Shown here one piece after another: positions 19,488-58,191 of a stretch of DNA of 64,000 nucleotides. Under the pieces are notes generated by a model. It did no database searches and was not told the DNA's origin. It saw only the letters and a list, made by a program, of their open reading frames with translations. Source of the stretch: an uncultured Candidatus Saccharimonas sp. (lineage in GTDB: Bacteria > Patescibacteriota > Saccharimonadia > Saccharimonadales > AWTP1-31); the NCBI GenBank assembly GCA_943354005.1, contig CALRBE010000005.1:21910-85909 (forward strand), read 5' to 3'. Positions within the stretch are counted from its first letter, which is position 1. Every line of letters begins with the position of its first letter. The position numbers were made by a program, and so were the translations under genes.

Positions 19488-19589
19488 AATATCCTCCTTT
19501 AGTATATTAACATAAGAGAAAATATTATATATAGCCATGGGCTGTTTATAATTTCACGCTGACAAACATAACCGTTATAATGAGTGGAT

Positions 19590-21209
19590 ATGACTCAATC
19601 ACCTAATCCTGAAATTAATCCACGCATTATTGTTGCTTCAATCGCCGGGATGAGTCTACTTTTGGTATTTAATTTTCTAACTAACCAAACTTTCAGCGAT
19701 AACCCTTTTCTTGTTCTCGGTACTGCTTTTGCTATTCTGCTCTTTGCTGGAGTGCACCTACTTCCTAGCGTCCGTCCCCACGTTTCTAAAGCAGCTTCAC
19801 TTTACGCTTATCATTGGATACTATGCTTCGTCCTGATTTTTATCGTTCCTACATTATCATATTTCCTTTATATCTGGGTCCTACTGATATATCTAACGTA
19901 TTTTAGTTATAAGGCAAAAGGTGTTGTCTACAGCGCCATTGCGTTATGGGCAGCACTAGTCATGGGTGTTCAATACCAAGATAATGGCCTTACAGTTAGC
20001 TCATTTAGCAAGATTGTTCCACAGTATATCCTGCTGCTTATAGTTAGTCTTGTTTTGACACAGCTGGTTTTCTCCAATGTACGAAAAAGAAATGATATGG
20101 AAACTAAGGTGGATCAGGTCGAGCGTGAGCGCAAGCGATTGCTCGGTCTAATAAACACAATGTATGACCCGGTCATTACTACGGATGGTAAAGGATTCAT
20201 TCTAGCCTACAACGCAGCCGCACTTAATTTGTTGGATACCCATATGACGTTAACCGGTAAGCATATTCGAAATATACTGAAGCTTAAAGATGCGAAGGGC
20301 AATAATGTAGATATACTTCATGAACTTGAAGGCACTATGAATATTCAGAGACGTAAAGATCTAGTATTGCCTGTTGGCCCGGCGGATCACATATCACTAG
20401 ATCTAAGTATCAGCACAATAATGGGAGCATCACTTTTCTCTAAGAAAGAGGGCTACACATTATTACTAAGAGATATTACTAAAGAGAAGTCTCTCGATGA
20501 AGAAAAAGATTTGTTTATATCTGAAGTTAGTCACGAGCTTAGAACTCCAATTACGATCGCAGAAGGTGAATTATCCATGGGTATGTTACTAGTAGACAAG
20601 CCAAAACCTGCAATGGATGAAATCAAGGAGTCAGTCACAAAGGCTCATAGTCAGGTCGTTTTCCTAGCAGACATGGTTAATGATCTGACTGCATTATCTA
20701 GAGCAGAGCGTAGTGATAAAAAGATGGAAATTCAGACTTTTAAGGTTAGCGACATCATCAAAGATGTAGAGCAGCTTTATACTGCTCAAGCTGCAAAGAA
20801 GGGGCTTTATTTTAAAACTAGTGTCGATCCAAAAATAGATACAATTTCAACCAATAAACTATATTTTAAAGAAATTATGCAGAACTTCGTAACAAACGCG
20901 ATCAAGTATACGCAGCAAGGCGGCATTACTGTAGCTGTAAGGACTGAGGGTCCAGATGACATCGTGGTAGCTGTAACTGATACAGGTAACGGAATTGCAA
21001 AGAGCGAACAATCTAAAGTATTTGATAAATTCTGGCGCTCAGAAGATTCACTTACAAGATCTACTAATGGTACTGGACTTGGTCTATTTATTACTGCAAA
21101 GCTAGCACGTCATATCCATGGCGAGCTAAGCCTAGATTCAGAGCTTAAAAAAGGATCTACCTTCTCGCTAAAAGTTCCAAAAATACTACAAAACGAAGAC
21201 TTAAAATAA
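19590..21209 (+). CDS. membrane sensor histidine kinase
   Basis: Polytopic N-terminus, a PAS-like segment, the H-box SHELRTPIT, and N/G boxes (NAIKYT, DTGNGI, GTGLGL). No response regulator is adjacent. The track start is a GTG at 19584. Confidence 0.85.
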   Translation: MTQSPNPEINPRIIVASIAGMSLLLVFNFLTNQTFSDNPFLVLGTAFAILLFAGVHLLPSVRPHVSKAASLYAYHWILCFVLIFIVPTLSYFLYIWVLLIYLTYFSYKAKGVVYSAIALWAALVMGVQYQDNGLTVSSFSKIVPQYILLLIVSLVLTQLVFSNVRKRNDMETKVDQVERERKRLLGLINTMYDPVITTDGKGFILAYNAAALNLLDTHMTLTGKHIRNILKLKDAKGNNVDILHELEGTMNIQRRKDLVLPVGPADHISLDLSISTIMGASLFSKKEGYTLLLRDITKEKSLDEEKDLFISEVSHELRTPITIAEGELSMGMLLVDKPKPAMDEIKESVTKAHSQVVFLADMVNDLTALSRAERSDKKMEIQTFKVSDIIKDVEQLYTAQAAKKGLYFKTSVDPKIDTISTNKLYFKEIMQNFVTNAIKYTQQGGITVAVRTEGPDDIVVAVTDTGNGIAKSEQSKVFDKFWRSEDSLTRSTNGTGLGLFITAKLARHIHGELSLDSELKKGSTFSLKVPKILQNEDLK

Positions 21210-51962: not shown

Positions 51963-53258
51963 GTGGTGAGAGCTATAAACAGGAAATATGTAGTCTTATG
52001 CGGTTTATTGGTCGCTGTTTTATTTTTTGTCTCTTACATTGATACGATGCAAAGATTTATTTTTGCTGATAGTGATGATGAGCCATACTCGATATTTATT
52101 ATTGCTGGTCAATCTAACGCTGAGGGAACTAACTCATTCAGAAGTCAGCTCCCAGCCGGTACAGGATTCGATAAGCAAGATCATCCTGCAGATGTGGACA
52201 CCAAATTTTGGTGGGCTGGAGCAGATGGAAAAGGACCAAGCAGCGCTGTCGATTGGCTGACTATTTTTAACGGTGAGAGTGTCGCTGGATGGATTGACTC
52301 TGGTTCGGGTGTAACGCTTAATAAGTTAAAAAATTTGAACAGTACTCAGCGCGGGGGACTTTTTGGTTCTGAACTGGGTGCCGGCCGAACGTTATACGAC
52401 AAGGGACGACGTAAAGTTATTATCCTTAAAGTTACCTACGGCTTTCAGTCTCTTGCACAATCTACGAGCCAGTTTATTCCATATGATTGGAACTCAGCCG
52501 ATGCACAAACAAGACAGAAGAGTTACTATAGATTGAAAACAGAGTATGATCAGCTTACTGAGCAGTTACGATCTCAAGGTAAGAAATACACCATTGACGG
52601 ATTCCTATGGATGCAGGGCGAAACCGACACACTACAAACTGAGTATGCAGCTGCTTACAAACAAAACTTACTTAGTCTGACACAGGCAATCCGCAATGAT
52701 TTCAAGCTACATCCCGCGGCGCATATTGTACTAGGAAAAATATCATTAAAGCAGTGCATCGAGGAGTCTTACCCTGTAACAGGCAACTACTGTGGCGCGC
52801 CGTGGGCTGGAAGTCTTGACCCTCTTGCTTTTTCAGTTACTGAATCTCAACAAGCAGTGTATGCTGACAGACATAGACAAGTACGAGATGCAATGCAATT
52901 TGTCGCCGATAACGACCAGGCATATAAGCAAAAGGTAGACGTCGTAGAAACAGGAGACTTAAAGCGAGGTTATGACAGTATACACTTAACCGAATCAAGC
53001 CAGCTTGAACTTGGCAAAAGGTTCGTCAACATGTATTCACTACCAAAGCGCTATAACTCAGACGATCCGATTCCTGGTAGAAATTTAGATTATGACCGAG
53101 ATGGTGTCCTAAACTCAGCAGAAGATACTGGCCGGGGCCAGGGTTGTCCATTGAGTTATAACGCGGTAAATAACGGAAATTTAGGTGACGATGATTCGGA
53201 CTGCGATGGCTTTCCTAACTACCTAGATAAGATTAATGGCATAGGTAGCGGACTATGA
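51963..53258 (+). CDS. secreted SGNH/SASA-like (sialate O-acetylesterase family) esterase with C-terminal TSP3-like calcium-binding repeats
   Basis: IIAGQSNAEG and WMQGETD motifs. The C-terminal DYDRDGVLNSAED and DDDSDCDGFPNYLD are Asp-rich repeats. The GTG start lies 6 nt after TATAAT. Confidence 0.65.
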   Translation: MVRAINRKYVVLCGLLVAVLFFVSYIDTMQRFIFADSDDEPYSIFIIAGQSNAEGTNSFRSQLPAGTGFDKQDHPADVDTKFWWAGADGKGPSSAVDWLTIFNGESVAGWIDSGSGVTLNKLKNLNSTQRGGLFGSELGAGRTLYDKGRRKVIILKVTYGFQSLAQSTSQFIPYDWNSADAQTRQKSYYRLKTEYDQLTEQLRSQGKKYTIDGFLWMQGETDTLQTEYAAAYKQNLLSLTQAIRNDFKLHPAAHIVLGKISLKQCIEESYPVTGNYCGAPWAGSLDPLAFSVTESQQAVYADRHRQVRDAMQFVADNDQAYKQKVDVVETGDLKRGYDSIHLTESSQLELGKRFVNMYSLPKRYNSDDPIPGRNLDYDRDGVLNSAEDTGRGQGCPLSYNAVNNGNLGDDDSDCDGFPNYLDKINGIGSGL

Positions 53259-56200
53259 AAATAAAAGATATAGTCCTTCGTCAATGCAACAAGCTCCGCA
53301 AGTCCATAAAACAAATAAATAATAAAAAAATGCGCATTGGACTAATCATTGCTGGAGGTTTTTTTATATTGTTGTCGGTAATTATCTATGCTGTTCAACA
53401 TAATAAAAAACCAGCAAAGATTAAGAATGACATTATTATTGTTTCTGATGCAAAGACGGAAACGAGTAACGTTAATGCGAGTCCCGGCGAAAAAGTCACG
53501 TGGCAAAAAAGCCTAAAATTAAATTATCCATCCGATGCAGTAGACGGAAGTATTATTGAAGAAATAGATGAGAACCAGGAGTTCAATGGTCAATTAAATT
53601 TGCCAAAAGGTTGGACAGCGGAGTATTCGATTGATTCTAGGTCTACGGCTGCCGATAGTCGCGTCTATAGCTCAACATTACCAAATGATCCAACTACCGT
53701 AACGTTTATTAAAATTAAGACTGGTACTACTGACGATTTAAACCCTGTCTCTCAAAAGGCTCTAATTCAGCCTCTTGATGAAAGACAATTAATAACCAAC
53801 GGCAATGTACCCTCATCCCCGATTATTTATAACGATAAGGTATTTATAATTTATAAAGCAGTGCGGGCAACTACCTCCTCTGTCTCTATGGACTGTTTTG
53901 ATTTAAAAACGTACGCAAGCTGTAGCGACGTCACATTTCCAACTTATTTATCCGCAGATGGAACTAATGAAGTGCCCACTGCTCTAGGTACTGGAACCAG
54001 GAACATCAGCACTCCTAAAGATCTACAGCACGTCTTAGACTCTGATACGGGTAAGTTGTACATACCAGGTCAAAGCGGCAATAACTATGGGGTTACTTGT
54101 ATTAACTTATCCTTATTTCAAAATTGTGGATTCACAATATTAGGTTCGAGCACTGCTCCTACGGGTTCTAATCCCGCTCTAATATCAGGCTTTGTTCAAT
54201 TGGGTACTAAACTGTATGGACACGCCAATGATGCCGATCGAACTTATCAAACGGTTGTTTGTTTTGATCTTGAGACCAATGCTTCATGTTCTGGTTACAG
54301 CGCGACGTCTAATGCTGCAACCCTAACATATAAATTGTCTGAACATGCAGGTTCGTATGAGACTACTGGAAAACACGTTGTGAGCGGCGATAAAATGTAC
54401 TGGCTTGTAAACTATCGAACTGGCAACACAAGTATCCCAGAATTTTTTGCCCCGACTGGGACTCAGCGTGATCAAGGTACTCGTCTAGCTTGCTATGACG
54501 TTGTATTAAATCAGGTATGCACAGGGTGGCCTCTTAATGGCGGTCCGGCTCGGTATTTTACTGGACTTGGTACTGAACGGCCGTATGGACTATTCACATG
54601 GAAAAATCCTGGGGGGACCGATAAGGGGATATGCTTGTCGGCAGGCCTCGCAGGTTTTTATTCAGCGTTCGATCCAGGCATCAGTTGTTTCGACCTTTCT
54701 ACAGGAGCAGCATTAAGCGATCCCAGCTCACCTACGCTGTTTCCATCGCAATGGCTATATTTTCCATGGACGATGTCTTCGGATATTACAAATATAACGA
54801 ATGAAGCGGACGGGCATCAACGATCTTACTTCGCTTTATATAAAACTGCTGACGGTGCACTTACATCGGCTCGCACAGGAGGTGCAACAATATGTTACGA
54901 CTGGGATAAGCCAGGATTATGTGATGATTTCCCAAAAATAAAATATTGGAACGAGATTAACGACGGTAATAGTGGTGACGTGGGATATGCTGCAGACGGT
55001 TCATGTATGTGGGGTATTGGGGCATCTGGATATGTGTGGACATACAATAAGACCACTGCTGAATCTCCTTGCAGAACAACGAAAACTACGCAAACCGTCA
55101 GTCTTAATGCAGACGATTTTTACTGTGACGGCAATACCCATTCGTTTAATTGGAAGCGCGCTAAGTTATCGAACGCCAGCATGTATGATTTCCAAAACTA
55201 CTACGTGACAGTTAAAAATAGCGCCGGCCAAATATTAATACAAAAACAGGACATAAAAGAACTAGGTTATCTTGATTTATCGTCGATACCGTATGTAGGA
55301 AATGAACAATTGATCATCGATGTTGAGTCAACGGTATACAATACTAGTCCTTGGGCAAATGGTAACCTTCCGTATGCGACAGTTGTAGCTGATGCGGATG
55401 AAGCTCAGTATTGTTACGAAACAAATACTAAAAGTTATTGTGATATTGCTGGCATAGCGTCATTATCTAGTGCAGTAGTAAATATTCCAGACGATAGTTT
55501 AATAGATAATACGATAACGGAAGTTGTAGTAGATCAACCTGCTCAAACCCAATGTTTTAAAGATGTAAAACTCTCAATCACCAAAGATCGAACAAGTATA
55601 ACTAGAGGGGATAACATAACGTATAGTCTTAATATACAGAATAAGGCAAATATTGATCCTGAGGGGAGGGGGAATATAACTGGTGCGACCGTTGAGGCCA
55701 CAATACCAAGTGGTTTGGCCTATGTCAGTTCGTCAGCTGGTGGTTCCGTTGAAGGAAGTAAGGTAGTTTGGAATAACCAGACTTTCGTGGCGGCTTCAAG
55801 CTATGAAAAAACAGTAACGTTTAAGGTCCCCGCCACAGGTCTTGTGCCGCAAGAAAAGCCCAAAAAAGGAGTGGTATATGCTGCTACTTCACAGCAGAAT
55901 ATAGCTTTTAATGCAAACATCATATTTGATGGTGATACGTATCAAGCGGACAATAGCTCAGGCGATACAGGTGTCGTTCTTTCTATTACAACCCCAGAAA
56001 CTACAGCCCCAACAACCCCAGAAACTACAGCCCCAACCACCCCAGAAACTCCAGAAACTACAGCCCCAACAACCCCAGAAACTCCAGAAACTCCAACCCC
56101 TCCTGAGACGACTGCAAACATAAGGACGGGACCAACTCCGTATACGCCGCTTGTATTACAACGGTTTATTCCTTCAGTCCTAGAAAAGCCGGTAGAATTT

Positions 56201-57520
56201 ATATTCAGGACATTTAATCTAGGTGCTTCTGCGGTTCCAGTAGCCATAGCAAAAGCATCACCGTTCTTGCTTATCAGCATCTTGATAATACTGGCAATCT
56301 TCTATGGCATACAGGCTCTCATACAAAAGAAAGTGCGTCTAGAGTTTGCGGCCTTAAAAGAGCGCTTTAAACAGACTGAAACTCAAAGAAAGAAATTCAT
56401 CGATCTATCCACTCACTACCTAAATACACCGATTGTTACTATGAAGTCTACTGTAGAACTATTAGGCTTTGATAACGCGATATCTAAAGAGACTAGCTCT
56501 GCGATAAGCACTAGACTCAATAAGCTTTCCCAGGATGTGAGTACTATACTCGAAAATTCTCAAAAAACTGAGGTTTCGAACGGGCTCCAGGCTCAGACTT
56601 TAGAGGACACAAGTTTACTCAAATTTAGTTCAAAGCGTGCGGTAATCGTACCTTTAGTAAGCGTTCTTTTACTCGCAATATTTGTGAATGTACTTTTTGT
56701 ATGGACTAAGAAGTTTACCATTAATCCAGCTGTTCTTTCGACGCAACTTATAGTGTATCTTGCTGGTGCGTTTGGCCTATTGCTAGCTTACAGGAATCTT
56801 TTCCAGCAAAGACTTGTCACCTCATACGCCAACCAAGAATTAAATCTTGAAAAAGAGGTGTTCAATGCTCAGACAAGTCTCATTCGTGAAGGTAGCGGTG
56901 TAATACAAGATGATATCCTAGAAATTGATCGCTATGCACAGCAAATTCAGGCAGTTCCAAGAGGAAAAACTTTCAGTAACGGGCTTTCATCAATTAAGTA
57001 TATTGTTTCAAAAATGGCCTTTTTGAGTGCTATCGAAACTCAAACCTCAGCCATTGCTTTGGATACAACACAGTTTGAACATATTGTTTCTGAGGCTGTT
57101 GAAAAGTATCGTGAATTTGCACAATCAAAACAAATTCGATTCTCAACTATGATACAGCCAGATATCACTGCCCAAATTGATGAAGTGAGCTTAAGACATG
57201 TTCTATCTTCATTGATGGATAACGCAATTAAATTTTCAAAAGCCGGAGACAGTATTGATGTTGCAGTAAAAGGCGATAAGAAAGAAACACATATTACCGT
57301 ATCTGATACAGGTGAAGGTATTGAGGCTCAAGCTAAAGAAAAGATATTTGCACCTTTTTCAAGGGCTACAGACACCCAGCAATTAAATTATGAAGGTCTA
57401 GGCCTTAGTCTTTATACAGATAAGATAATCACAGATAAATATAATGGATCGATTACATTATCAGAAAATCCTGGCGGAGGCACTATAGTCAAAGTTGCTC
57501 TGCCTTCCAAAATAGAATAA
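53255..57520 (+). CDS. giant membrane sensor histidine kinase with ~950-aa extracytoplasmic region
   Basis: N-terminal TM helix, Cys-motif repeats, a DUF11-like repeat domain, a PT-rich linker, TM helices, an H-box-like STHYLNTPI, and an HATPase_c domain (DNAIKFS, DTGEGI, GLGLSL). ATGA overlap with the upstream gene. Confidence 0.8.
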   Translation: MKIKDIVLRQCNKLRKSIKQINNKKMRIGLIIAGGFFILLSVIIYAVQHNKKPAKIKNDIIIVSDAKTETSNVNASPGEKVTWQKSLKLNYPSDAVDGSIIEEIDENQEFNGQLNLPKGWTAEYSIDSRSTAADSRVYSSTLPNDPTTVTFIKIKTGTTDDLNPVSQKALIQPLDERQLITNGNVPSSPIIYNDKVFIIYKAVRATTSSVSMDCFDLKTYASCSDVTFPTYLSADGTNEVPTALGTGTRNISTPKDLQHVLDSDTGKLYIPGQSGNNYGVTCINLSLFQNCGFTILGSSTAPTGSNPALISGFVQLGTKLYGHANDADRTYQTVVCFDLETNASCSGYSATSNAATLTYKLSEHAGSYETTGKHVVSGDKMYWLVNYRTGNTSIPEFFAPTGTQRDQGTRLACYDVVLNQVCTGWPLNGGPARYFTGLGTERPYGLFTWKNPGGTDKGICLSAGLAGFYSAFDPGISCFDLSTGAALSDPSSPTLFPSQWLYFPWTMSSDITNITNEADGHQRSYFALYKTADGALTSARTGGATICYDWDKPGLCDDFPKIKYWNEINDGNSGDVGYAADGSCMWGIGASGYVWTYNKTTAESPCRTTKTTQTVSLNADDFYCDGNTHSFNWKRAKLSNASMYDFQNYYVTVKNSAGQILIQKQDIKELGYLDLSSIPYVGNEQLIIDVESTVYNTSPWANGNLPYATVVADADEAQYCYETNTKSYCDIAGIASLSSAVVNIPDDSLIDNTITEVVVDQPAQTQCFKDVKLSITKDRTSITRGDNITYSLNIQNKANIDPEGRGNITGATVEATIPSGLAYVSSSAGGSVEGSKVVWNNQTFVAASSYEKTVTFKVPATGLVPQEKPKKGVVYAATSQQNIAFNANIIFDGDTYQADNSSGDTGVVLSITTPETTAPTTPETTAPTTPETPETTAPTTPETPETPTPPETTANIRTGPTPYTPLVLQRFIPSVLEKPVEFIFRTFNLGASAVPVAIAKASPFLLISILIILAIFYGIQALIQKKVRLEFAALKERFKQTETQRKKFIDLSTHYLNTPIVTMKSTVELLGFDNAISKETSSAISTRLNKLSQDVSTILENSQKTEVSNGLQAQTLEDTSLLKFSSKRAVIVPLVSVLLLAIFVNVLFVWTKKFTINPAVLSTQLIVYLAGAFGLLLAYRNLFQQRLVTSYANQELNLEKEVFNAQTSLIREGSGVIQDDILEIDRYAQQIQAVPRGKTFSNGLSSIKYIVSKMAFLSAIETQTSAIALDTTQFEHIVSEAVEKYREFAQSKQIRFSTMIQPDITAQIDEVSLRHVLSSLMDNAIKFSKAGDSIDVAVKGDKKETHITVSDTGEGIEAQAKEKIFAPFSRATDTQQLNYEGLGLSLYTDKIITDKYNGSITLSENPGGGTIVKVALPSKIE
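55988..56113 (+). repeat. tandem coding repeat (TTPETTAP/TPE units)
   Basis: ACCCCAGAAACTACAGCCCCAACA-type 24-nt units with 9-nt CCAGAAACT sub-repeats, encoding a Pro/Thr/Glu linker. Confidence 0.85.
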
Positions 57521-57567: not shown

Positions 57568-58191
57568 ATGATAAAAATAATTCTTGCCTTAGGGCCGATA
57601 CTACTGATGCTTGTAGTATCTGAATATTTTTGGCGTAAAAAACTAGTTCGCGGTGAGTCATCCAGAAAGCTACTGCACATTATAATCGGAGCATACGTTG
57701 CCACTTGGCCCGCTTTCTTATCCTTTAGTGCAATTCAAAATATAAGTGCTGCATTCCTTGTCGTTGTTCTACTATCTCAGCGATTTAACATTTTTAAGGC
57801 AATCAACGATGTAAAACGTAAGACATGGGGCGATGTGCTCTACGCATTAGGCATTGGTCTGGCTGCAACACTTACTCGTGATCCTTGGATTTTTGCAGTT
57901 GCGATTCTATTCATGAGCCTGTCTGACGGAATGGCTGGGCTTGTTGGGAGCCATTTCGGAAAAAACAGTCGCTATACTATTTTTGGCAACAAAAAAAGTA
58001 TAGTTGGTACACTTGCATTCATCCTATGTTCATTTGCGATTCTTATAGGTGTTCAATCTGTCCACTCATTAGCTATAACGCCACTCATGTTCATTGTCTT
58101 GCCTTTTATGGCTGCAGCCTTAGAGAATCTTGGGGCACTAGGTAGCGATAATATTCTAATTCCTGTACTTGTTGTTTTAGCGCTAAGCTAA
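57568..58191 (+). CDS. polyprenol/dolichol kinase - CTP-transferase family membrane protein
   Basis: 207 aa, polytopic, with SSRKLLHI and SDGMAGLVG motifs. TACAAT lies 7 nt before the ATG. Confidence 0.55.
   Translation: MIKIILALGPILLMLVVSEYFWRKKLVRGESSRKLLHIIIGAYVATWPAFLSFSAIQNISAAFLVVVLLSQRFNIFKAINDVKRKTWGDVLYALGIGLAATLTRDPWIFAVAILFMSLSDGMAGLVGSHFGKNSRYTIFGNKKSIVGTLAFILCSFAILIGVQSVHSLAITPLMFIVLPFMAAALENLGALGSDNILIPVLVVLALS

Follow-up and report, generated by a model that had tools for sequence, protein, structure and literature searches.

A predicted sensor histidine kinase of Saccharibacteria with its H-box and its ATPase domain on separate helical hairpins

Histidine kinases are textbook obligate homodimers in which a single dimerization and histidine phosphotransfer (DHp) hairpin both holds the phospho-acceptor His and tethers the catalytic and ATP-binding (CA) domain. 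In CheA, a His-less dimerization four-helix bundle (P3) lies beside the CA domain (P4), and the His is carried by a separate helical domain (P1). Here, we describe a gene for a 1421-amino-acid (aa) protein (positions 53255-57520, + strand) on a 64,000-nucleotide stretch of DNA from an uncultured Candidatus Saccharimonas sp. (assembly GCA_943354005.1, contig CALRBE010000005.1, positions 21,910 to 85,909; hereafter the window, in which all kinase coordinates are counted). The family to which this protein belongs puts the two roles, holding the His and tethering the CA domain, on different hairpins that are joined through the membrane. Because the CA domain is intact, because one His is conserved in an H-box that also has the phosphatase Thr, and because the signalling module is constrained and reused, we read the protein as a functional sensor kinase. 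With a probability of about 0.6, it is a working membrane sensor histidine kinase of Saccharibacteria (TM7) and belongs to a large, undescribed "split transmitter" family. The relatives that share the split wiring number in the hundreds and are uncharacterised. Neither Pfam nor NCBIfam has a model of the signalling module, and Pfam has no family for the propeller in the ectodomain; current annotation therefore gives "HATPase_c" only. We found no description of the split wiring in the literature searched (on the kinases of Saccharibacteria/Patescibacteria and on those with a His-less DHp or a transmembrane insertion), which is not proof of its absence. An earlier note, made from the letters of this DNA alone, had pointed out the unusual order of domains; its observation is confirmed and its interpretation supported by the analysis below.

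Layout of the protein and its divided transmitter

The gene encodes one unbroken chain, and all nine motifs quoted in the earlier note were located in its translation. Hydropathy gives four transmembrane (TM) helices, at aa 28-46, ~1003-1023, 1130-1148, and 1159-1180; the second was previously placed at ~1003-1022, and the last two are the extra pair that had been noticed between the H-box and the CA domain. The N-terminal 27 residues include 10 K/R, and TM2, TM3, and TM4 have basic flanks on their cytoplasmic side, which puts the H-box (1054) and the CA domain both in the cytoplasm. The predicted topology hence puts the N-terminus, aa 1024-1129, and aa 1181-1421 inside the cell and leaves aa 47-1002 and the 8-residue loop between TM3 and TM4 outside. 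By the same basic flanks, the H-box lies on the cytoplasmic side of the membrane and not outside the cell. The features of the gene are as follows.

53255-57520, + strand: sensor kinase gene; ATG start, 1421 aa plus stop
53255-53392, + strand: basic cytoplasmic tail (aa 1-27, 10 K/R) and TM1 (aa 28-46), from hydropathy and charge counts
53492-53764, + strand: N-terminal beta-sandwich domain of the ectodomain (aa ~80-170), from AlphaFold2 strands; W83, K85, S86, Q108, P117, and W120 conserved
53822-55084, + strand: predicted seven-bladed beta-propeller (aa ~190-610), from motif positions, Cys invariance, AlphaFold2 strands, and Foldseek
55097-55549, + strand: beta-sandwich "leg" domain (aa ~615-765), from AlphaFold2 strands; Cys624, Cys720, Cys729, and Cys767 invariant
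55562-55852, + strand: DUF11 repeat domain (aa 770-866), Pfam PF01345
55991-56110, + strand: Pro/Thr/Glu-rich stalk (aa ~913-952), from the sequence
56231-56323, + strand: extracellular juxtamembrane motif (P995, A999, P1003) and TM2 (aa ~1003-1023), conserved in 143 relatives
56324-56611, + strand: DHp1, divergent HisKA helical hairpin (alpha1 to aa 1072, alpha2 1078-1119), from the family profile, sub-threshold Pfam match, and AlphaFold2
56414-56416, + strand: codon CAC of His1054, the predicted phospho-acceptor, aligned to phospho-His260 of HK853
56636-56794, + strand: membrane hairpin of TM3 (aa ~1128-1150), a loop of ~8 residues, and TM4 (aa ~1159-1180), from hydropathy and AlphaFold2 helices
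56795-57040, + strand: DHp2, His-less hairpin continuous with TM4 (alpha1 to aa 1232, alpha2 1237-1262), from profile, Foldseek, and AlphaFold2
57041-57517, + strand: CA (HATPase_c) domain, from Pfam and the N, G1, F, and G2 boxes

A homologue search returned 19 relatives at 32-96% identity, 17 of which are full-length and include the kinase part. Across the whole kinase, a Pfam scan reported HATPase_c and DUF11 and no HisKA above threshold. The H-box itself, DLSTHYLNTPI, is present at aa 1050-1060, as had been reported; its His is residue 1054 (CAC, 56414-56416), not ~1053. In Pfam terms the hairpin around it falls short: the window protein reaches E 0.012 for HisKA (16.1 bits versus a cut-off of 26.9), and 16 of 17 family members match the model along its whole length below threshold (best E 8.7e-6). 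Searched as a single sequence against the PDB, DHp1 found kinase H-boxes only, weakly (E 0.09-0.7), with His1054 on the phospho-His of HK853 and VicK. The family profile, whose H-box reads F-x-x-L-x-x-H-Y-L-x-T-P, matched HK853 and other kinases among solved structures at E 1.8e-4 over both helices, with His1054 on His260. Judged by these profiles, DHp1 is a divergent but full-length HisKA relative, and it has what defines a HisKA-class acceptor hairpin, namely a conserved phospho-acceptor His in an H-box.

The hairpin that adjoins the CA domain (aa 1181-1262) has no such residue. The DHp-like helix without a His that the earlier note had seen here, FNAQTSLIREGSG, was found at aa 1203, and its character is confirmed; the position equivalent to the His is Gly1215, ~6 residues downstream of where it had been aligned. 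This equivalence comes from a weak profile alignment with alpha1 of HK853 ("FIansssvL" versus "FIANISHEL"). HisKA matched this hairpin in none of 17 family members. Among 143 relatives, DHp2 has no conserved His, and the equivalent residue is E, K, Q, A, G, S, D, or T and never His. A His-bearing DHp directly N-terminal to the CA domain, as the HisKA class has, is thus missing, and the topology is non-canonical as previously claimed, with two TM helices splitting DHp1 from DHp2 and the CA domain.

The remainder of this second unit is conventional. DHp2 alpha2 and the CA domain align to HK853 residues 72-246 (E 2e-13), and the model of DHp2 plus CA matches the DHp plus CA units of CpxA, HK853, and ZraS over 235-245 columns in Foldseek (E 3e-12), which points to a canonical kinase-core fold. 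HK853 and WalK are among the sequence matches that the CA part resembles, and NCBIfam kinase models align only from about residue 1240 to the end. Pfam places HATPase_c (PF02518) at aa 1309-1418 with E 2.3e-23, in line with the domain and N-box proposed earlier. The CA boxes are intact, N (DNAIKF, aa 1322), G1 (DTGEGI), F (FAPFSR), and G2 (GLGLSL), and they are invariant in 18 sequences. A profile-profile comparison of DHp1 with DHp2 (hhalign) found no similarity (probability 0.2), so that a recent duplication is unsupported; an ancient duplication or a fusion may have produced the pair.

We modelled aa 985-1421 with AlphaFold2. In the model, one unbroken helix (996-1072) runs from TM2 into DHp1 alpha1, and a second (1158-1232) runs from TM4 into DHp2 alpha1. 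From these helix limits, the cytoplasmic parts of the two alpha1 helices are nearly equal in length, 49 residues in DHp1 and 52 in DHp2, and His1054 lies 31 residues under TM2, with the His-equivalent position of DHp2 35 residues under TM4. The predicted geometry of rigid alpha1 helices of 49 and 52 residues, with the CA domain leaving DHp2 alpha2 at about the depth of His1054, is compatible with a split transmitter.

To see how far this arrangement extends, we built a profile of the module from aa 993-1270 (juxtamembrane motif, TM2, DHp1, TM3, TM4, and DHp2, with the CA domain left out) and searched it against 1.84 billion representative proteins. At E<=1e-3 it matched 758 clusters, of which 474 reached E<=1e-10 and 92 reached E<=1e-30. 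Among the 150 matches listed, all but a few fragmentary proteins cover essentially the whole profile. Hence, the topology noticed earlier is real but not unique to this protein, and the split wiring marks out a family whose protein clusters number at least several hundred. The matched proteins range from 237 to 4413 residues, which indicates that the module has been fused to many different sensor regions; the proteins in which it is joined to an ectodomain measure 420-4413 aa. The range of the wider family is so far established only for its few named members, as Saccharibacteria/Patescibacteria.

Conservation was measured on 143 full-module matches from a 50%-identity library, the relatives already referred to. 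His1054, the best-conserved position of all, is kept in 142 of 143, H+4 is Thr (Thr1058), a residue typical of that position, in 137, and H+5 is Pro in 140; these three and H+1 lead the module in conservation. Between TM2 and the CA domain, there is no second conserved His (top column, 27/143). Spacings are almost frozen: 51 residues from P1003 to the His (142/143), 19 from N1145 to Q1164 (140/143), and 45 from Q1164 to the DHp2 box (142/143). The only variable stretch is the low-confidence linker after DHp1 alpha2, with mostly 75-82 residues between His1054 and P1133. Polar residues recur inside the membrane hairpin: TM3 Asn1145 (56687-56689) is N/D in 128 of 143 and TM4 Gln1164 (56744-56746) is Q/E/H in 136, most often in the combinations N/Q (67), N/E (29), D/Q (14), and D/H (13). 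This pair could serve as a proton, ion, or helix-packing switch. The polar pair and the conserved juxtamembrane P995, A999, and P1003 suggest that the four TM helices act as one signalling bundle.

The family also has smaller and paired members. A subfamily of ~600-650 aa (P0101, P0127, P0145, P0173, P0163, P0175) has a small ectodomain of about 150-200 aa, with G-x-Y-G-x-C-x-Y-x(4-8)-C directly after the signal peptide and the H-box SHYLRTP. At two loci, two family members lie near each other (L036, 6001-8016 and 8699-10180; L037, 6001-7281 and 7507-13281), and one of these proteins carries a giant NHL-repeat propeller ectodomain. The H-box helices of such paralogues are very similar, and the paralogues could converge on one regulator.

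The ectodomain and the gene neighbourhood

Outside the membrane, the protein is dominated by a Cys-rich repeat. Six motifs begin at aa 212, 280, 334, 411, 476, and 545; the spacings of 68, 54, 77, 65, and 69 aa do not bear out the period of ~65-75 aa proposed for them. The six-fold repeat itself stands, with five motifs that fit C-x-[DN]-x6-C, but the fifth (Cys478) is without a second Cys. Each repeat consists of a Y/F/W-rich strand followed by x-C-[FY]-D-L. Six C-x8-C pairs are present in the ectodomain (214/223, 282/291, 336/345, 413/422, 547/556, and 720/729), and none of 20,000 shuffles of the ectodomain gave six (maximum four); the Cys repeat is beyond chance. All 18 ectodomain Cys are invariant in an alignment of the window protein with the 19 homologues, down to 32% identity, and this invariance suggests that they form disulfides.

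An AlphaFold2 model of aa 70-905, from a 20-sequence alignment, is all-beta with a mean pLDDT of 84.3. Its secondary-structure string suggests seven blades, the six repeats already recognised and a degenerate seventh around Cys584/Cys606. An invariant C-x-[DN]-x6-C pair is present in every one of blades 1-4 and 6; the cysteines of blade 5 are Cys460/Cys478, and those of blade 7 are Cys584/Cys606. The earlier proposal of a disulfide-stapled propeller thus fares well as to fold, since the model is all-beta and its best matches are of a propeller-plus-Ig-leg form, but the pattern fits seven blades and not six. In Foldseek against the PDB, the top matches were the ectodomains of integrin alphaV, alphaIIb, and alpha5 (E 8e-13 to 2.5e-9 over ~850 columns), followed by designed and WD40 propellers (7- and 8-bladed) and a Micromonospora sialidase. 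Integrin alpha chains have the same order of seven-bladed propeller, beta-sandwich legs, stalk, and TM helix, but the match has low TM-scores (about 0.25) and an identity of about 10%. Pfam gave no match to aa 180-640 up to E 10, be it to FG-GAP or to any other family; seven FG-GAP repeats are not recognisable by sequence, and the similarity is structural only. We regard the predicted likeness to integrins as no more than a resemblance of form.

The DUF11 domain and the stalk were as first described. Pfam DUF11 (PF01345) matches aa 770-866 above its gathering cut-off (E 3.1e-7; 31.1 versus 24.6 bits), and the Pro/Thr-rich stalk at aa ~913-952 is built of short TPET/TTAP repeats. Relative P0001, at 96% overall identity, has 11 aa fewer in all than the window protein, and a shorter run of PT repeats can be seen in it. 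The length and sequence of the stalk differ between the window protein, P0001, and P0002 (87% identical); such variation among close relatives is expected from repeat slippage.

The ectodomain also occurs apart from the kinase. Relative P0019 (1029 aa) has the complete ectodomain but lacks the kinase module and ends in one hydrophobic anchor and a short basic tail, so that the sensor domain can exist as a plain surface protein. Ectodomain relatives with the N-terminal sandwich, Cys-paired propeller, and leg occur at 24-29% identity in Actinomycetota (loci L015-L032, e.g., L018, 9827-12310): in Catellatospora species, in metagenome-assembled genomes (MAGs) of Pseudonocardiaceae and Acidimicrobiia, and in one "Melainabacteria" MAG. 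The Catellatospora coxensis homologue is a secreted protein of 827 aa that lacks both TM helix and kinase; it has a signal peptide and, at its C-terminus, DUF7617/DUF11. Saccharibacteria live as epibionts on Actinomycetota and have reduced genomes with very few regulators; given this way of life, host-symbiont gene exchange or a shared ligand is possible.

Three other genes of the window bear on the kinase or serve as controls.

51963-53258, + strand: SASA-family carbohydrate O-acetylesterase-like gene, 431 aa, product membrane-anchored or secreted (Pfam SASA, E 7e-22)
57568-58191, + strand: polytopic membrane protein, 207 aa, with weak CTP_transf_1 similarity (Pfam E 2.6e-4, below cut-off)
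19584-21209, + strand: second, canonical kinase, 541 aa, with a multi-TM N-terminus, PAS-like region, HisKA with SHELRTP, and HATPase_c

The stop codon of the SASA gene overlaps the kinase start codon as ATGA (53255-53258), and a SASA gene lies directly upstream of the kinase in 13/13 Saccharibacteria loci that hold upstream DNA. A scan for promoters and terminators between the two genes found nothing that exceeds chance. At its N-terminus the SASA product has a hydrophobic anchor, and at its C-terminus it has Asp-rich, DxDxDG-like repeats of a calcium-binding type. Very large surface domains, a paired carbohydrate esterase, and actinobacterial relatives of the ectodomain together make the kinase a candidate host-surface sensor. 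Downstream, the gene for the 207-aa membrane protein is found again at L001-L004 and L009, where the next gene, on the opposite strand, encodes a P-type ATPase; it is uncertain whether this membrane protein is linked to the kinase. The canonical kinase matches Pfam HisKA at E 3e-9, a control showing that HisKA detection works in this genome. It has no receiver gene in the window, and it is flanked upstream by LemA and TPM-phosphatase genes that are read from the opposite strand.

The nearest species-level genome match of the split kinase is an uncultured Candidatus Saccharimonas MAG (91% identity). Eleven further loci, at 36-49% identity, are named as Saccharibacteria, Saccharimonadales, or Saccharimonadota, and another bears just the label "uncultured bacterium"; one of the 19 homologues is labelled "Patescibacteria group bacterium". 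The homologue at L007 (9752-15670), in a GTDB genome, contains an X run, from masked or N bases, in its Ig-like repeat region, and its length of 1972 aa is approximate.

Proposed working and its alternatives

We propose that the large, monomer-sized ectodomain is displayed outside the cell on its Pro/Thr stalk, where it would probably bind a surface or glycan ligand, most likely one tied to what the co-translated SASA-type esterase acts on or releases. Because that esterase is conserved and translationally coupled, an O-acetylated carbohydrate suggests itself, possibly from the host surface, although this is a guess. The signal would enter TM2, which is predicted to be continuous with the DHp1 alpha1 helix bearing His1054, with no HAMP or PAS domain between. 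The chain would then re-enter the membrane and cross it twice (TM3-TM4), TM4 extending as DHp2 alpha1. In this scheme the His-less DHp2 would act as scaffold and tether for the intact CA domain, which would phosphorylate His1054 of the neighbouring DHp1; the phosphoryl group would move on to a response regulator encoded elsewhere, and Thr1058 would supply the usual phosphatase function. A module that is portable across so many ectodomains is not what we would expect of a vestige.

A bolder version, which we put forward tentatively and think rather doubtful, is that the protein is a single-chain pseudo-dimer of a histidine kinase. The two hairpins of one chain may form the whole four-helix bundle, with their alpha1 helices descending from TM2 and TM4, and TM3-TM4 may be the shortest connector from the top of DHp1 alpha2 to the top of DHp2 alpha1. 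With the order alpha1 (down), alpha2 (up), TM, TM, alpha1 (down), alpha2 (up), CA, a single chain shows the same helix directions as a canonical dimer, and with TM1 the chain has four TM helices, as a kinase dimer does. Such a pseudo-dimer would have one His (on DHp1), one CA domain (on DHp2), and a fixed "trans" geometry; it would hard-wire an asymmetry that normal dimers take only transiently, and it would free the sensor from dimerising, which would suit giant monomeric ectodomains.

Several results weigh against our reading of the protein as a working sensor kinase. The AlphaFold2 model of the C-terminal part is only moderately confident (pLDDT 75.7, pTM 0.60, with aa 1106-1124 below 50). 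Mutual information with average product correction, on 139 sequences, gave no usable DHp1-DHp2 contacts; its top pairs form cliques around the subfamily markers R1045, V1160, and K1253. No cognate regulator is at hand either: just as the earlier note had reported no response regulator nearby, we found no receiver domain in any open reading frame of >=50 aa across the 64-kb window, using four queries that recover 14 or 15 of 15 hybrid kinases as a positive control. We also surveyed the neighbourhoods (+-6-10 kb) of the Saccharibacteria loci L001-L014 and of L033-L037 from the wider family. A receiver gene was nearby in 2 of these 19 module-bearing loci, the window being a 20th with none, and we conclude that the family is typically orphan. 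The two show that Saccharibacteria do encode receivers: the one at L007 is a single-domain receiver, convergent with the kinase and inside an ABC-transporter operon, and that at L010 is an OmpR-type gene 3.8 kb off. Finally, H+1 is Tyr in 137 of the 143 full-module relatives, and the acidic residue found there in the HisKA class is missing. In HisKA kinases, an acidic H+1 is the general base for autophosphorylation, and the phosphatase reaction uses Thr and His (PMC7005713). A Tyr at H+1 therefore implies either a chemistry that differs from the canonical one or a balance tilted to phosphatase or phosphotransfer activity.

This last point opens the way to an alternative that we consider unlikely but take seriously, in which the protein autophosphorylates poorly for want of an acidic H+1 and is biased to phosphatase or phosphotransfer activity, or is a pseudokinase. 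It might then be a regulated phosphatase or phosphotransfer station for the regulator of another kinase, or a scaffold that modulates another kinase, as RetS modulates GacS. The near-universal pairing of Tyr at H+1 with the phosphatase Thr at H+4 fits this idea, given the roles of the two positions in HisKA kinases set out above; the canonical SHELRTP kinase in the window could be the phosphodonor, and some genomes have several family paralogues (L036, L037). Conservation of the ATP-binding boxes of the CA domain throughout the family would, however, be unexpected in a pure phosphatase or scaffold. Moreover, autophosphorylation occurs in the HisKA_2 and HWE families, which have no acid at H+1. 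It is improbable that the CA domain acts elsewhere than on His1054, whether as a Ser/Thr/Tyr protein kinase or, in the manner of the GHKL anti-sigma-factor kinases, as an ATP-dependent switch, with DHp1 as a separate regulatory or docking element. Attachment of the CA domain to a His-less hairpin would agree with this, as would the rarity of linked regulator genes, but the CA domain and DHp2 align full length with the HisKA class and are not SpoIIAB-like (HATPase_c_2 gave no score), and the near-absolute H, T, and P of DHp1 are a signature of phospho-acceptance and regulator docking.

Could the protein be mainly a surface adhesin or anchor, with a functional integrin-like ectodomain and a decaying kinase remnant? 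The resemblance to integrin alpha chains, the adhesin-like leg domains, the simply anchored P0019, and the secreted, kinase-less versions in Actinomycetota all lean that way. We hold it very improbable, as conservation of the cytoplasmic module equals or exceeds that of the ectodomain, its helix lengths are frozen, and it recurs in hundreds of clusters with unrelated ectodomains; a module so frozen, conserved, and widely reused implies strong purifying selection on signalling. An artefact, whether a fusion of two genes by misassembly or frameshift or a canonical kinase with an overlooked His near the CA domain, is scarcely credible even though Pfam alone gives no HisKA. The fusion is ruled out by the same unbroken architecture in independent ENA, JGI, NCBI, and Logan assemblies and in 14 species-level genomes, and the overlooked His by the DHp2 columns, none of which conserves a His, in a genome where HisKA detection works.

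If the protein is a working sensor kinase of the split type, its family is a natural experiment on how a CA domain finds its His, on the need for dimerisation, and on the origin of asymmetry. It may also offer a scaffold for engineered single-chain sensors.

Comparison with described kinases

The window kinase shares with HisKA kinases such as EnvZ, CpxA, HK853, and WalK/VicK a sensor outside the cell between two TM helices, a TM2 that leads into a hairpin with an H-box (H-x-x-x-T-P), and the HATPase_c boxes N, G1, F, and G2 after a hairpin. The predicted fold of DHp2 plus CA superposes on CpxA and HK853. It departs from these kinases in that canonical HisKA proteins use one DHp to hold the His and tether the CA domain, whereas here two hairpins, split by a TM hairpin, divide these tasks. 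Furthermore, H+1 is Tyr and not Glu/Asp, there is no HAMP or PAS linker, and the Pfam HisKA match is sub-threshold.

The logic is that of CheA, with which the window kinase shares a His-less hairpin next to the CA domain and an acceptor His on another domain that the CA domain must reach. CheA, however, is soluble and has an HPt-type P1 on flexible linkers together with P2 and P5, whereas the connector of the window kinase is a membrane hairpin. Unlike P1, the His-bearing unit here is a HisKA-type hairpin that is predicted to be rigidly continuous with a TM helix. Pfam found no Hpt, P2, or CheW-like domain in the window kinase, which therefore does not belong to the CheA class.

Intramembrane-sensing kinases of the BceS/LiaS type have an identical layout of TM3, a loop of ~8 residues, TM4, hairpin, and CA domain, and BceS is among the sequence matches of the CA part. 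In the BceS/LiaS type, however, the hairpin keeps its His, and no unit of ectodomain, TM helix, and DHp precedes it. With a His-less hairpin and a 950-residue ectodomain, the window kinase is not one of them. RetS and DivL, which are among both the sequence and the structure matches, likewise have a DHp-like hairpin and a CA domain with no canonical His used. Their partner DHp is on another polypeptide, whereas in the window kinase the His-bearing DHp is part of the same chain.

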